From a virus: DNA of 24,301 nt. Shown here piece by piece: positions 3,510 through 8,121 of this stretch (the first letter of the stretch is position 1; each line of letters begins with the position of its first letter). The notes beneath the pieces are model-generated. The model was not told the DNA's origin. It saw nothing but the letters and a program-made list of their open reading frames with translations, and did not search any database. The stretch lies in the UHGV virus genome UHGV-1420800; one strand, 5' to 3'. A program made the position numbers and the translations under genes.

Positions 3510-4113
3510 ACCAGCGCGAAGACGATGTAAAAACGATGAATGTCGGGAATGGTTTCACCCTGCATTCGCTAATCAGTGGTGGTGCTCTCCAGAGTGTGGA
3601 ACCAAGATAGCACTCGAACGACGAAGTAAAGAACGCGAAAAAGCGGAAAAAGCAGCAGAGAAGAAACGACGACGAGAGGATCAGAAACAGAAAGATAAAC
3701 TTAAGATTCGAAAACTCGCCTTAAAGCCCCGCAGTTACTGGATTAAACAAGCCCAACAAGCCGTAAACGCCTTCATCAGAGAAAGAGACCGCGACTTACC
3801 ATGTATCTCGTGCGGAACGCTCACGTCTGCTCAGTGGGATGCCGGGCATTACCGGACAACTGCTGCGGCGCCTCAACTCCGATTTGATGAACGCAATATT
3901 CACAAGCAATGCGTGGTGTGCAACCAGCACAAAAGCGGAAATCTCGTTCCGTATCGCGTCGAACTGATTAATCGCATCGGGCAGGAAGCAGTAGACGAAA
4001 TCGAATCAAACCATAACCGCCATCGCTGGACTGTCGAAGAGTGCAAGGCGATCAAGGCAGAGTACCAACAGAAACTCAAAGACCTGCGAAATAGCAGAAG
4101 TGAGGCCGCATGA
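3502..4113 (+). CDS. ninG: NinG / Rap recombination-associated endonuclease (Holliday junction resolvase family)
   Basis: 203 aa with N-terminal Cys cluster ([12 protein letters not shown]...CSPECG) and basic central region; matches lambda NinG(Rap) in length and sequence by recall. Confidence 0.9.
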
Positions 4114-4316: not shown

Positions 4317-4965
4317 TGGCAGCAAATACCGAAATATTTGGGTAGTTGGCGATCTGCACGGATGCTACACGAACCTGATGAAAAAACTGGAGACGATAGG
4401 ATTCGACACCAAAAAAGACCTGCTTATCTCGGTTGGCGATTTGGTCGATCGCGGTACAGAGAACGTCGAATGCCTGGAATTAATCACATTCCCCTGGTTC
4501 AGAGCTGTACGTGGAAACCATGAGCAAATGATGATTGATGGCTTATCAGAGCGCGGAAACGTCAATCACTGGCTGCTTAATGGCGGTGGCTGGTTCTTTA
4601 ATCTCGATTACGACAAAGAAATTCTGGCCAAAGCTCTTGCCCATAAAGCAGATGAACTTCCGTTAATCATCGAACTGGTGAGTAAAGATAAAAAATATGT
4701 CATCTGCCACGCCGATTATCCTTGTGACGAATACGAGTTTGGAAAGCCAGTTGATCATCAGCAGGTAATCTGGAACCGCGAACGAATCAGCAACTCACAA
4801 GACGGGATCGTGAAAGAAATTAAAGGCGCTGACACGTTCATCTTTGGTCATTCGCCAGCAGTGAAACCGCTCAAATTTGCCAACCAGATGTATATCGATA
4901 CCGGCGCAGTGTTCTGCGGAAATCTCACATTGATTCAGGTACAGGGAGAAGGCGCGTGGGCATAA
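4294..4965 (+). CDS. ninI: Ser/Thr protein phosphatase (lambda NinI / lambda-PPase family, metallophosphoesterase)
   Basis: From ATG 4294 ([25 protein letters not shown]...GDLVDRG...GNHE), the canonical metallophosphoesterase motifs GDxHG, GDxxDRG, GNHE; near-identical to remembered lambda phosphatase. The ORF track extends the frame upstream to 4219, which overlaps ninH. Confidence 0.9.
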
Positions 4966-5474
4966 GAGAACTAAACCTCACCAAAGAACAGCATGAGTGG
5001 CTGAATGGCTGGCTTGAACTGTGGGGCGCATGGGTTTATTCAGGTCGTCTGGAAAAGCGCATGAGCAGCGTAATAGCGAAGTTCATGGAGAGCGTAGAGC
5101 CGGGAAGAGTTATGACAAGGCCAATGTGCAATGATGATGATGGAATGTTGATTTCTCAGGTCGTTGATTCCGTCATGTACATTGACAAGAAAGCCTTTGG
5201 CATCCTCCTCAGCTACTACGCTCATGGTTCATCTAAGCGAGCAATTGCATCCTACTATCACGCGACTGCAAAGCCACGCAAGATGTGTGGACGTGGTGGC
5301 GAGGGATGGAGAAAACCTTCACTGGCAACCTGTAGAAACGAAATTGACGACATCCTGAAAGCGTCATTATTTGTTTTATACCAGCCAATGCAAAATGCTT
5401 TCAAAATGCGTAAACGTGTTGAGAAAGTTAAGCATGTTGCTGTTAAAAACCTTGACATGCAATTATCCATTTAG
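4956..5474 (+). CDS. Q: Late-gene antitermination protein Q (phage 82 / quuD-type Q family)
   Basis: Contains LELWGAW...[12 protein letters not shown], resembling the ERWGAW...RPQCCDDDAM motifs of E. coli prophage Q proteins; position between nin region and lysis genes. The only in-frame start upstream of the conserved motif is GTG 4956, so the start is uncertain. Confidence 0.75.
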
Positions 5475-5481
5475 CCATAAT
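5452..5481 (+). promoter_or_regulatory. Candidate late promoter pR' (-35 TTGACA at 5452-5457, -10 CATAAT at 5476-5481) with presumed qut region just downstream
   Basis: Consensus -35 hexamer and good -10 hexamer with 18-bp spacing, at the 3' end of Q where lambdoid late promoters lie. Assignment by motif and position only. Confidence 0.45.
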
Positions 5482-5490
5482 TAGAAGGTA

Positions 5491-5535
5491 AGCTGCCGTT
5501 AGTGACTCTTAAGTTGCAACGGTGGCTTTTTTGTT
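5491..5535 (+). terminator. Possible tR'-like terminator (imperfect hairpin followed by CTTTTTTGTTTG)
   Basis: agctgccgtt (5491-5500) can pair with aacggtggct (5518-5527) if two G-U pairs are allowed; a T-run follows at 5527-5535. The 17-nt loop is long, so this is tentative. Confidence 0.35.
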
Positions 5536-6050
5536 TGCACAACAGGTAAGAGCATTGAACCCGCAGACCTCGCGGAATTGGTGAAAGGTGCCGCGCAGTA
5601 CTCTTATCGTTGTGGTGAATACGCAGGCTGATGCGTTAATCAGGTGAACGAGACACCCGCCGGTCCGTGATATGGCACACCGTGCCGGTCATATCTGCCG
5701 CGGTTAGGTTTACGAGGATTTCGTAAAGCTGGTCTAGGGTGAAGCCGTGAAAGCGGAGGAAGTAAAACGAGGCGTCGGTACACGCCTATCGTCATTAAGT
5801 CGGAGTTCAGCACCGACCGCCACAACCCAACCTGAGCCGTAGCCACTGGCTATCCTGAATTCATCAGTGATAGTTATGCTGCGGCCTTCTACACATGACC
5901 TTCGTGAAAGCGGGTGGCATGAGGTTGCGCTAACAACCTCCTGCCGTTTTGCCCGTGCATATCGGTCACGAACAAATCTGATTACTAAACACAGTAGCCT
6001 GGATTTGTTCTATCAGTAATCGACCTTATTCCTAATTAAATAGAGCAAAT

Positions 6051-6076
6051 CCCCTTATTGTGGGTAAGACATGAAG
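6051..6076 (+). promoter_or_regulatory. Holin dual-start control region (sdi-like stem-loop CCCCTTATTGTGGG plus tandem starts ATG-AAG-ATG)
   Basis: Sequence aatccccttattgtgggtaagacATGaagATG closely resembles the lambda S translation-initiation region that sets the S107 antiholin to S105 holin ratio. Confidence 0.7.
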
Positions 6077-6394
6077 ATGCCAGAAAAACATGACCTGTTA
6101 GCCGCCATTCTCGCGGCAAAGGAACAAGGCATCGGGGCAATCCTTGCGTTTGCAATGGCGTACCTTCGCGGCAGATATAATGGCGGTGCGTTTACAAAAA
6201 CAGTAATCGACGCAACGATGTGCGCCATTATCGCCTGGTTCATTCGTGACCTTCTCGACTTCGCCGGACTAAGTAGCAATCTCGCTTATATAACGAGCGT
6301 GTTCATCGGCTACATCGGTACTGACTCGATTGGTTCGCTTATCAAACGCTTCGCTGCTAAAAAAGCCGGAGTAGAAGATGGTGGAAATCAATAA
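6071..6394 (+). CDS. S: Holin, lambda S family (class I, dual start Met1/Met3)
   Basis: 107 aa [39 protein letters not shown]..., essentially identical to remembered lambda S107 (one difference seen near the C-terminus). Confidence 0.95.
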
Positions 6395-6854
6395 TCAACG
6401 TAAGGCGTTCCTCGATATGCTGGCGTGGTCAGAGGGAACTGATAACGGACGACAGAAAACCAGAAATCATGGTTATGACGTCATTGTTGGCGGAGAGCTA
6501 TTCACTGATTACTCCGATCACCCTCGCAAACTTGTCACGCTAAACCAAAAACTCAAATCAACAGCAGCCGGGCGCTATCAGCTTCTTTCCCGTTGGTGGG
6601 ATGCCTACCGTAAGCAGCTTGGCCTGAAAGACTTCTCTCCCAAAAGTCAGGACGCTGTTGCGCTGCAGCAGATTAAGGAACGTGGCGCTTTGCCGATGAT
6701 TGATCGCGGTGATATCCGTCAGGCAATCGACCGTTGCAGCAATATCTGGGCTTCACTGCCGGGTGCTGGTTATGGTCAGTTTGAGCATAAGGCTGATAGC
6801 CTGATTGCAAAATTCAAAGAAGCAGGCGGAACGGTCAGAGAGATTGAAGTATGA
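6378..6854 (+). CDS. R: Endolysin, lambda R family (lytic transglycosylase)
   Basis: 158 aa [23 protein letters not shown]... matches lambda R in sequence and length; start overlaps the S 3' end as in lambda. Confidence 0.95.
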
Positions 6855-7318: not shown

Positions 7319-7758
7319 TAGCGATAATTCTACTCATCATCCTTCACATCTGGCTCTGTAGACAGGGTGGTGATCACTTCTGGAGTGAATCCAGATTAAA
7401 CATCTCATTGCTGATGCTTGAAGTTGAGCATCTGGCGCGCGGTAAGGGGCTGCGTTGAGATAAGAGCCAGTTCATTACAAATCCTATCTACGGGTGGGCT
7501 TGATAATGAAACCGGAGTTAATTTCTGGTCACTAATTAACGGCAGTACAGCGAAACAACCCAAGCCAGTAAGCGGGGAAATAACACTGGCAGCCACTGAA
7601 AGATGAACCTCCTGCCTTATGGCAAAAAAGATTCTTTGTGGTGGCGGACTGATGGAAAGACATCGGATAGAATCAAGCAGTGGCTAGGGTAGTTCCCGAA
7701 AAGCGGACTCGTCACCGCCTGCCACTGAATCTATGGCGAACAACTAGACGAGGTTGTG

Positions 7759-7974
7759 ATGGATGATAACGGAAACCAATGGATCAATGTTGAACACCGG
7801 CTACCAGAAAGCAAAGAAGGGATGTGGTCTAAAGAGGTTATAGCTCTTACTGATACTGGTGACGTGTTCAAACTATCATGTATGGGCTCTTACTGGCAGA
7901 GAACCAAGGCATTCATCGATTCAGGAGCAAGCAAGGTTACACACTGGATGCCGCTTAATTACCCAGATGATTAA
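7759..7974 (+). CDS. Hypothetical protein, DUF551-like (C-terminal THWMPLNYP motif)
   Basis: 71 aa from ATG 7759 (GTG at 7756 also possible), RBS-like GAGG upstream. The HW-PL-P C-terminal motif is typical of a widespread small phage protein family; function unknown. Confidence 0.55.
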   Translation: MDDNGNQWINVEHRLPESKEGMWSKEVIALTDTGDVFKLSCMGSYWQRTKAFIDSGASKVTHWMPLNYPDD

Positions 7975-7988
7975 AACGGATGAAAAAT

Positions 7989-8016
7989 GAAAGGTCGCTC
8001 AGGCGGCCTTTTTTAT
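7989..8016 (+). terminator. Intrinsic terminator
   Basis: aaaggtcgc / gcggccttt 9-bp stem (one G-U pair) with tcag loop, followed by tttatt; immediately downstream of the 7759-7974 ORF. Confidence 0.6.
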
Positions 8017-8121
8017 TGCCATCACAAAAGCCATTCCCTACAGAGTGGCTTTGATAATGGCTTATACCCTACACGGGATAACTTAACTGATATCCCTTTT
8101 AACGGATAAACTGAGCCAACA

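Follow-up and report, generated by a model that had tools for sequence, protein, structure and literature searches.

What occupies the few hundred seemingly spare bases of a lambdoid late leader? We addressed this question in the virus genome UHGV-1420800, of which a stretch of 24,301 nucleotides (nt), hereafter the window, was analysed, and in which the spacer between the antiterminator gene Q and the holin gene S takes up positions 5475-6070 (596 bases; coordinates are those of the window unless another record is named). The original prediction, made from these letters alone, saw no convincing open reading frame (ORF) in the spacer, and indeed it holds only short mechanical ORFs. Over these 596 bases, identity is 99.7% with CUS-3, a P22-like phage of E. 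coli K1, and 99.2% with phage Huey. Two 'boundary sequences' are marked in the CUS-3 record, bsq4 over the first 64 bases (window 5475-5538) and bsq3 over the last 241, and the 291 bases that separate them bear no annotation. Here we report, with high confidence, that the window element lying between these labels is a genuine member of a genuine family of structured RNAs, consisting of a long hairpin (module 1) followed by a tRNA-like shell with an insert (module 2). Taken as a whole, the reading that we somewhat favour is that the spacer forms the 5' leader of a Q-dependent late transcript in three parts, namely a promoter-terminator unit (5452-5534), the structured RNA (5538-5826) and a lambda-type S leader (5827-6070), with the structured RNA acting as a carrier for variable RNA cargo.

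A covarying tRNA-like shell

Module 2 of the window is a long form of 218 nt (5609-5826, plus strand) and was recognised by the covariance model R1, which had been built from relatives of at most 150 nt and had no sequence of the window type in its training set. R1 matches it over the full length of the model (positions 1-123) with 57.2 bits and an E-value of 3.4e-13, E-values being rough owing to a shortened calibration, and this is the sole match in the 24 kb. The order of parts is the same in all copies: a closing helix P1 of 7-9 base pairs (bp), a linker AAU, a hairpin H1 (GCGCA-GGCUGA-UGCGC), an insert of about 12-190 nt, a hairpin H2, typically GCCGG-AGAUCAGCA-CCGGC in the family, and the 3' strand of helix P1. 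In the window, the acceptor-like closing helix is formed by GUUGUGGUG at 5609-5617 and CGCCACAAC at 5818-5826, including one U.G pair. H1, at the position of a D-arm, spans 5621-5636 (ACGCA-GGCUGA-UGCGU, with the loop GGCUGA at 5626-5631), and H2, at the position of a T-arm, spans 5799-5817 (GUCGG-AGUUCAGCA-CCGAC), its loop at 5804-5812 carrying UCAGC. The features by which the family is defined are thus all present, namely an H1 loop GGCUGA together with an H2 loop ending in UCAGC(A), and a module 1 that lies directly 5' of helix P1 and is preceded by a copy of the P1 3' strand (CACAAC in the window).

The evidence that this shell is a folded RNA is comparative. In a MAFFT alignment of 54 units (A1), 95.4% of the cells are paired, and none of 500 shuffles reached the observed measures. 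Among 106 model-aligned copies from viral contigs and genomes (A2), the corresponding value is 95.7%, and 16 of the 19 scaffold pairs show double changes, in 92 cells; when the partners were slid by 1-3 columns, pairing dropped to 29-51%. Double changes affect six of the nine pairs of helix P1 (104 distinct copies), for which the long forms have wholly different sequences, and all five stem pairs covary in H1 as well as in H2. One-sided changes at paired positions gave G.U or U.G on the plus strand, which indicates that the sense strand of the late transcript is the folded one.

The two hairpin loops seem to belong together as well. The H1 loop GGCUGA is identical in 96 of the 106 copies, even where the stem around it has been replaced (GGCGG-GGCUGA-CCGUC in the relative L143), and the H2 loop, of variable length (8-13 nt), retains (U)CAGC or (U)CAGU on its 3' side. 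Since the loops are complementary, four to five Watson-Crick pairs could form between them, imitating the elbow of a tRNA, and the loop-loop columns (GCUGA of H1, UCAGC of H2) are 97.8% paired in A1. The sole small covariation at these columns is found in a minor class B, which includes the second copy of phage P1 and has the loop-loop pairs GCC:GGC, GCU:GGC and GCU:AGC.

A nearly invariant junction core and an interchangeable insert

In long forms such as that of the window, the shell encloses two core blocks with a variable domain between them. The 5' core block, UAAUCA-GGUGA-A-CGAGA, lies at 5637-5655, and the 3' core block, AAAACGAGGCG-ucgguaca-CGCCUAUCG followed by the 3' strand of helix P3, at 5764-5796; P3 pairs 5643-5651 with 5789-5796. 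The variable domain, or cargo slot, at 5656-5763 comprises the helices P4a (5657-5703) and P4b (5704-5732) and a GNRA hairpin, P4c (5745-5756). The window carries the complete long-form pattern, that is, UAAUCAG-N4-R-CGAGA, AAAACGAGGCG-N8-10-GCCUAUCG and the P3 pairing of GGUGA with UCAUU. Together these segments build a three-way junction (UAAUCA / P3 / CGAGA ... AAAACGAGGCG-P5-CCUAUCG) that sits where the anticodon arm of a tRNA would be. Across the long forms, P1, H1 and H2 are free to change, with compensation, and the junction sequences are almost invariant. For P3, 31 distinct strand pairs were collected, in which 4.29 of 5 positions pair on average, compared with 3.16 +/- 0.14 after shuffling (maximum 3.65 in 2000 shuffles). 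Applied to five RNAs of the window subtype, RNAalifold recovered P3, P4a, P4b, P4c, P5 and H2, with 11 compensated pairs distributed over P3, P4b, P4c, P5 and the H1/H2 hairpins. Closure of the insert by one helix resembling an anticodon stem was also considered and was rejected, as only 21 of 90 constrained folds formed it.

This fold accounts for the motifs that had been singled out in the spacer beforehand. The hairpin AGGCGT-cggtac-ACGCCT, found at 5770-5787 within the 3' core block, is P5, the most conserved helix of the junction core; the hairpin GGCAC-acc-GTGCC lies inside P4a, and the repeat GCCGGTC occurs at 5659-5665 and 5684-5690. These elements are real, but they are not separate features, being parts of the helices P4a and P5 of one large fold. 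Of the stretch beyond the terminator tR', for which a structured RNA had been suggested, 5827-6070 is lambda-type S leader, and the proposed structured RNA gained support from covariation but not as a 6S-like transcript from the promoter pR', since the element lies downstream of tR'.

In some relatives, the slot holds recognisable RNAs. True tRNAs are nested between the core blocks of the loci L251 (4571-4644, minus strand), L247 (8908-8979, plus strand), L209 (7505-7577, minus strand) and L265, all in the coordinates of the respective locus; the first three score 44-59 bits with RF00005, and ARAGORN calls the nested tRNAs as tRNA-Arg(CCU), tRNA-Gln(CUG) and tRNA-Ala(GGC). The inserts of three short forms (L075 4600-4646, L085 624-670 and L096 1953-1999) match positions 237-283 of the small-subunit (16S) ribosomal RNA (rRNA) model, the region of helix 11, with E-values of 1e-5 to 2e-7, and this looks like an rRNA-like piece displayed in a tRNA-like shell. 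Where one insert type recurs in different hosts, its copies carry compensatory changes, which argues that the inserts, too, evolve as folded RNA. About 100 further non-redundant types of short-form insert have no strongly enriched 5-mer (best less than 3-fold). The window's own variable domain, scanned alone against Rfam 15, has no match to a known RNA, and a resemblance of P4a/P4b to the 530 loop of 16S rRNA, noticed by eye, was unsupported by Rfam and was dropped.

tRNA ancestry and relation to known RNA classes

Although it is not itself a tRNA, the shell of module 2 is, judging by its sequence, derived from one. In a four-way alignment of lambda, Sf6, HK75 and the window, the element ends at the exact base where the tRNA-Thr gene of phage Sf6 ends, and its 3' end, the strand 5818-5826 of helix P1, aligns base for base with the 3' end of that tRNA, just before the common S leader. 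In HK75 the copy retains a canonical T-arm (GCCGGUUCGAUUCCGGC) along with a hairpin resembling a D-arm, and the copy of the relative L255 ends in ...CCUGACC-A-CCA and carries a D-arm segment that we take to be the same as that of E. coli tRNA-Leu. A canonical tRNA lies within 1 kb of 14 of 131 units, in each case co-oriented and never opposed. That related phages carry tRNA cargo in this very slot, as had been anticipated, is borne out by tRNA-Asn and tRNA-Thr at the equivalent place in Sf6 and, according to the Sf6 annotation, in phage 21. The Sf6 slot follows tR', precedes the S leader, is read from the same strand and has the same 3' junction as the element, and module 2 keeps the acceptor-like helix and the D- and T-like hairpins of the tRNA genes of Sf6, phage 21 and phage P1. 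It differs from them in that it has no anticodon arm, that its loops are non-canonical and that its closing helix has 9 bp and no conserved CCA.

The earlier statement that no tRNA can be recognised here held for the search programs, yet it missed this ancestry. ARAGORN called no tRNA gene in the window, and none with its intron option on the identical CUS-3 unit; RF00005 had no match in the region at E-values up to 10. Rfam 15, searched over 4900-6500, has no family that reaches its gathering score and no match to the tRNA or transfer-messenger RNA (tmRNA) models, and neither Rfam 15, at E-values up to 10, nor ARAGORN matched anything in the spacer. At permissive thresholds, Rfam 15 returned only tRNAs, one rRNA-like insert and chance matches for the window region, its variable domain and 24 related loci.

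tmRNA and the bacterial Y-RNA-like YrlA are tRNA-like non-coding RNAs in which an acceptor/T-arm module of tRNA type is linked to a large domain of other origin. Module 2 is similar to both in that a large non-tRNA domain replaces the anticodon arm. No tmRNA was detected by ARAGORN, which also searches for this class, or by Rfam, no search having been aimed at a tag-peptide frame or a pseudoknot ring. For Y RNA and YrlA, Rfam gives only a chance-level match of 12.4 bits on the wrong strand (gathering score 38), and the 58 long-form neighbourhoods have no rsr or rtcB neighbour in common. A group I intron has no Rfam match either, and the H1-H2 insert of 162 nt with three helices falls short of the P3-P9 core and the at least about 200 nt that such an intron needs. 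The stable RNAs C and D of phage T4, which have no known function and are co-transcribed with tRNAs from a tRNA gene cluster, offer a parallel by description only. The M3 RNA of phi80, a classic non-tRNA substrate of RNase P, was rejected as a candidate, the phi80 Q-S spacer being without both modules. Known prophage small RNAs (sRNAs) near Q and S (Pas sRNAs, STnc100, AgvB, AsxR, Esr41 and DicF) had no Rfam match in 4900-6500, and the Pas sRNAs of pathogenic E. coli lie at different loci (preprint).

The topology of both short and long forms is the same as that of the engineered 'tRNA scaffold' of Ponchon and co-workers, in which an arbitrary RNA replaces the anticodon arm and the chimera is processed and protected like a tRNA in E. 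coli (PMC3753655). That scaffold is man-made and has a true tRNA body, whereas the natural family has a loop-loop pair of its own and, in long forms, the conserved junction core. The family as such has no match in Rfam 15, and no description of it, its conserved strings included, was found in open-access full text. We classify it as a tRNA-like non-coding RNA and a new member of that known class, with a substantial chance of its being something categorically new.

Distribution and genomic contexts

A sensitive blastn search with the middle 291 bases matched short sub-blocks in gaps without annotation, in mutually unrelated phages of Aeromonas, Hafnia, Klebsiella, Erwinia, Enterobacter and Salmonella. 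Several of these matches were just upstream of tRNA genes, and the gaps had common ends with compensating helices. Homologues were gathered by exact sequence patterns. At least 120 IMG/VR contigs contain the 23-mer GTGGTGAATRCGCAGGCTGATGC, and the 3' core pattern AAAACGAGGCGN{8,10}GCCTATCG, which contains the P5 hairpin, was found in a further 96 viral stretches, a few of them already among the 23-mer finds, which brings the family to more than 200 viral contigs overall. Among 58 unique copies found via the 3' block, 44 carry the 5' block upstream and only 22 the canonical 23-mer shell. Among species-representative bacterial genomes, 56 carry the 23-mer, in prophages of mostly gamma- and betaproteobacteria. 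Most belong to Enterobacterales and Aeromonas, with other hosts among the Betaproteobacteria (Janthinobacterium, Massilia, Undibacterium and Xenophilus), in Marinobacterium and in the alphaproteobacterium Martelella; it also occurs in metagenome-assembled genomes (MAGs) of Moraxellaceae and Lysobacterales and in a few MAGs assigned to more distant phyla. The 23-nt block is thus identical from E. coli to Janthinobacterium.

In E. coli, the minimal 68-nt unit has matches in 1345 of 5426 complete genomes, with both halves covered in 830. These matches include 862 places on plasmids, which measure about 84-112 kb among the matches listed, and none of the matches listed overlaps an annotated feature; the E. 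coli RefSeq records (Prokaryotic Genome Annotation Pipeline, PGAP) that were examined annotate nothing over the copies. One such plasmid, examined in detail, has the gene order of the ban region of phage P1. In phage P1 itself (AF234172, L135), R1 matches 69,817-69,918 with 69 bits and 70,078-70,201 with 36 bits (L135 1530-1631 and 1791-1914, plus strand), both on the strand of the ban operon and between trnT and tciA. The first of these copies overlaps the minus-strand ORFs plp (putative lipoprotein) and upl (unknown function), and plp and upl may therefore not be genes. An antisense regulator of the host was considered as well and was rejected, given that a blastn search of 5539-5829 against the 5426 E. 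coli genomes matched only copies of the element (in 348 genomes) and thus found no long complementarity to core genes.

Phage lambda (NC_001416, L192 988-1142) has module 1 at 44,787-44,862, right after tR', followed by a module-2-like unit at 44,857-44,941 with a compensated helix P1 (GUUGUGCUG/CAGCACAAC) and a different interior, which R1 scores at 15 bits (E 0.015). By its sequence, this unit weakly qualifies as a divergent member of the family. The Q-lysis regions of phi80, Sf6 and the E. coli K-12 prophage DLP12 are without the element.

Several copies seem to be transcription units of their own. The short forms L056 (about 7990-8060), L064, L098 and L107 have their own promoter, TTGACA-17-TACATT, ending about 7 nt before helix P1, and many long forms have a terminator on either side, the downstream one being their own, which argues that such copies are RNA genes and not just leader sequence. 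The copies of the L056 type stand alone without module 1, and a long, operator-like palindrome (ATGTAGGATA.CCAACAT...ATGTTGGATATCCTACAT) surrounds their promoter. In the Klebsiella phage KlebP_265 (L009, 2237-2631), two complete units of modules 1 and 2 stand in tandem, followed by tRNA-Ser, tRNA-Arg and tRNA-Met, and one short annotated 'hypothetical protein' overlaps these units. Clustering of the ORFs around 58 copies gave no common partner protein, the commonest neighbour being the lambda-type holin (11 of the 58 loci), and the lack of a shared protein points to action through host factors.

Transcription of the element and alternative pairings

The promoter pR', its qut site and tR' had been expected in this region, and all three were confirmed by comparison with annotated phages. 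A promoter scan places pR' at 5452-5481 (plus strand; TTGACA at 5452-5457, an 18-base gap and CATAAT at 5476-5481, with 11 of 12 consensus matches), on the same 30 bases on which it is annotated in Sf6, where it is labelled phage-21-like, and in HK75; its predicted start at about 5488 agrees with the one proposed earlier. The intrinsic terminator tR' at 5490-5534 (plus strand) consists of a hairpin (5490-5528) and a U-run inside a Q21-type qut region, folds with -20.2 kcal/mol (z-score -3.0), lies in bsq4 of CUS-3 and coincides with the pR'/qut/tR' annotation of Sf6 and the terminator annotation of HK75. The region thus has the arrangement of a Q21-type late leader, with a sigma-70 promoter right after a Q21-type Q gene (4956-5474, phrog_943, E 3e-93) and a terminator within about 50 nt of the start. 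At the other end, the spacer runs up to the start codon of the lambda-type holin gene S at 6071 (gene 6071-6394).

In the absence of Q, transcription would end at tR' and give a short RNA of about 45 nt, and the structured RNA at 5538-5826 would be reached only once Q-modified polymerase passes the terminator. Because the element lies downstream of tR', we infer that its transcription in this phage requires prior read-through mediated by Q. The lambda 6S RNA and the StxS-type RNAs are short pR'-tR' transcripts, and the window has an analogous promoter-terminator unit at 5452-5534; a unit of that kind stops at tR', whereas the structured RNA of the window begins beyond it.

The first part of the element to be transcribed would be module 1, a long hairpin at 5538-5614 (plus strand) with 13-bp arms at 5545-5557 (GGUAAGAGCAUUG) and 5596-5608 (CAGUACUCUUAUC) and a variable tip at 5558-5595. 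The arms pair at 12 of 13 positions, as measured on the identical CUS-3 copy (L001), and the stem is extendable to about 20 bp by pairing strand a, CACAAC at 5539-5544, with GUUGUG at 5609-5614. Of 179 unique contexts directly 5' of helix P1, 68% form 11 or more of the 13 possible stem pairs, whereas a null with shuffled arms gives 8.8%, and 86 distinct compensated arm pairs were counted. The 6-7 bases that precede the stem (CACAAC in the window) copy the 3' strand of helix P1 (strand c), so that GUUGUGG in its 5' strand (strand b) is able to close either module 1 or module 2. Strand a does covary with strand b, with 5.91 of 7 positions paired compared with 5.37 +/- 0.055 for shuffled partners. 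Two sets of mutually exclusive pairings result: 5539-5544 or 5820-5826 (CACAAC / CCACAAC) may pair with the one GUUGUGG at 5609-5615, and, as read directly from the sequence, UCG at 5789-5791 may pair with CGA at 5649-5651 or with CGA at 5768-5770. This suggests a conformational switch or processing intermediates.

A possible RNA carrier and its alternatives

Here we speculate that the element might be a carrier of RNA cargo. Module 1, as a hairpin of up to about 20 bp, could be cut in its stem by RNase III, and the tRNA-like shell would let host tRNA-processing enzymes excise the element, with RNase P acting 5' of helix P1 and 3' trimming enzymes at the other end. The released piece of about 220 nt would then persist as a stable particle that carries and presents the variable domain, a natural 'tRNA scaffold' for cargo RNA, which in relatives is a working-looking tRNA or another RNA piece. 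We regard this sequence of processing, release and persistence as tentative, one serious possibility rather than the expected outcome. A wider proposal, which we put forward as doubtful, is that of a modular class of phage RNAs with a tRNA-shaped chassis, an invariant junction core and interchangeable cargo (tRNAs, rRNA-like helices and about 100 other domains), in which the core might be catalytic or bind a universal host factor, the cargo might counter RNA-targeting host defences (anticodon nucleases or rRNA-directed toxins, for instance) by acting as a decoy or spare part, and the a/b/c and CGA/UCG/CGA pairings might act as a switch coupled to processing.

Several observations weigh against the reading we favour. 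The single-sequence folding energy of 5539-5829 is ordinary (z-score -1.06 on the plus and -0.41 on the minus strand), which makes the structured-RNA idea undecidable from one sequence and leaves the decision to the comparative evidence. In that evidence, alignment A2 was fitted to the model and leans toward the model structure, the independent MAFFT alignment A1 being in agreement with it, and the collection by exact patterns biases the sample to conserved blocks, so that loop 1 and the core are fixed by ascertainment. In the main class, the loop-loop pairing is without double compensations because loop 1 is invariant. Helix P1 usually has 9 bp and no conserved discriminator-CCA, and the loops of H1 and H2 depart from canonical D and T loops; recognition by RNase P is therefore not assured. 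The minimum-energy fold of 5486-5840 forms the extended a:b stem in preference to helix P1, which accordingly may not form in the primary transcript, and the excision and stability of the RNA are deduced from its shape alone.

If the reading is right, however, annotation has passed over a conserved RNA of complex fold in the late leaders of lambda-like and P22-like phages, in the ban operon of phage P1 and in about one sixth to about one quarter of all complete E. coli genomes, and the ORFs annotated across the element (plp and upl of phage P1, 'hypothetical proteins' of phage Huey) are probably not genes. Were the wider proposal true, lambda and phage P1 would carry an unrecognised functional RNA in plain sight. 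The family is a testable object, as its secondary structure is defined, its natural variants number in the dozens and it can be deleted from model phages, and it bears on why phages carry tRNAs and how these were acquired, on the role of the spare bases of lambdoid late leaders, and on phage RNA decoys or carriers versus RNA-targeting host defences. In addition, a natural tRNA-like chassis that accepts inserts of about 12-190 nt is directly relevant to technologies for expressing RNA.

The preference for the a:b stem also lends itself to another explanation, namely that the element is not released at all and acts in cis, as a switch or processing stalk that sets the 5' end of the late mRNA, its stability or the timing of holin and endolysin, by means of RNase III in the stem of about 20 bp, RNase P at helix P1 or the exclusive a:b and b:c pairings. 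In the window, CUS-3, HK75 and lambda the element does lie in the leader directly upstream of the lysis genes, the lambda-type holin is its commonest neighbour, and the covariation of strands a, b and c suggests that both alternative helices are maintained, the minimum-energy fold using a:b in the window leader and b:c (helix P1) in that of lambda. We nevertheless consider such a device unlikely, as many copies stand alone with their own promoter and terminator or beside terminase, tail or replication genes, the copies of phage P1 lie in the ban (helicase) operon, and the element is absent from Sf6 and phage 21, whose lysis cassette and S leader are the same.

The near-invariance of the core raises the possibility that the junction acts as a small ribozyme or resembles an intron, and that it would excise or mature the cargo, such as a nested tRNA, without host enzymes. 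Almost complete conservation of about 45 junction nt across very different scaffolds and hosts is the pattern of catalytic or ligand-binding cores, and ACGAG motifs stand on both sides of the cargo. Bacterial tRNA introns sit at the anticodon-arm position, which is also the insertion point here, and real tRNAs are nested inside. However, the region matches no ribozyme or intron family of Rfam even at E-values up to 10, three helices make the insert too small for a group I intron, the ARAGORN intron option reads no shell as an intron-containing tRNA, and short forms keep the shell while being without the junction entirely, all of which makes self-processing decidedly improbable.

The CUS-3 labels and the tRNA genes at the equivalent position have a further possible explanation, in which the element is a functionless RNA left by decaying tRNA genes and recombination linkers, and its conserved blocks promote the exchange of modules at the level of DNA. 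The boundary sequences bsq4 and bsq3 of CUS-3 bracket the element exactly, the element stands where other phages have tRNA genes, sub-blocks are common to unrelated phage types in a strongly mosaic distribution, and short direct repeats flank its variable parts (CACAAC...CACAAC and ACGAG...ACGAG). Boundary sequences, as named in the Sf6 and CUS-3 records, are a concept of DNA-level recombination, whereas the segment between them shows covariation at the level of RNA. In pseudogenes, double substitutions would not preserve pairing at 16 of 19 helix positions, and single changes limited to G.U on one strand, or a 23-nt block shared between E. coli and Janthinobacterium, would be unexpected of them; moreover, some copies have their own promoter and terminator. 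We thus see very little room for this explanation. Hardly any credence is left for two small proteins, a 68-amino-acid minus-strand ORF (5640-5846) and a 50-amino-acid ORF (5867-6019). Phage Huey annotates both (as hypothetical proteins) and the latter has a database match, but the former starts with GTG, is Arg/Pro-rich, has no PHROG family and is antisense to helices that covary as RNA, the match of the latter reflects repeated ORF calling on near-identical DNA, and lambda has no annotated gene at the equivalent place.

The S leader and neighbouring observations

The last part of the spacer, the lambda-type S leader (5827-6070, plus strand, 244 bases; bsq3 of CUS-3), shows about 95-100% identity between lambda, Sf6, HK75 and the window, and is more conserved among these phages than would be expected of a mere spacer. 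It contains the GTG-started ORF of 50 amino acids at 5867-6019 (plus strand), which matches phrog_22751, a family of unknown function, with an E-value of 1.4e-29. Further downstream, phage Huey (L004) has an anti-CRISPR protein annotated at 3536-3596, downstream of Rz, for which the equivalent region of the window is about 7500-8000.

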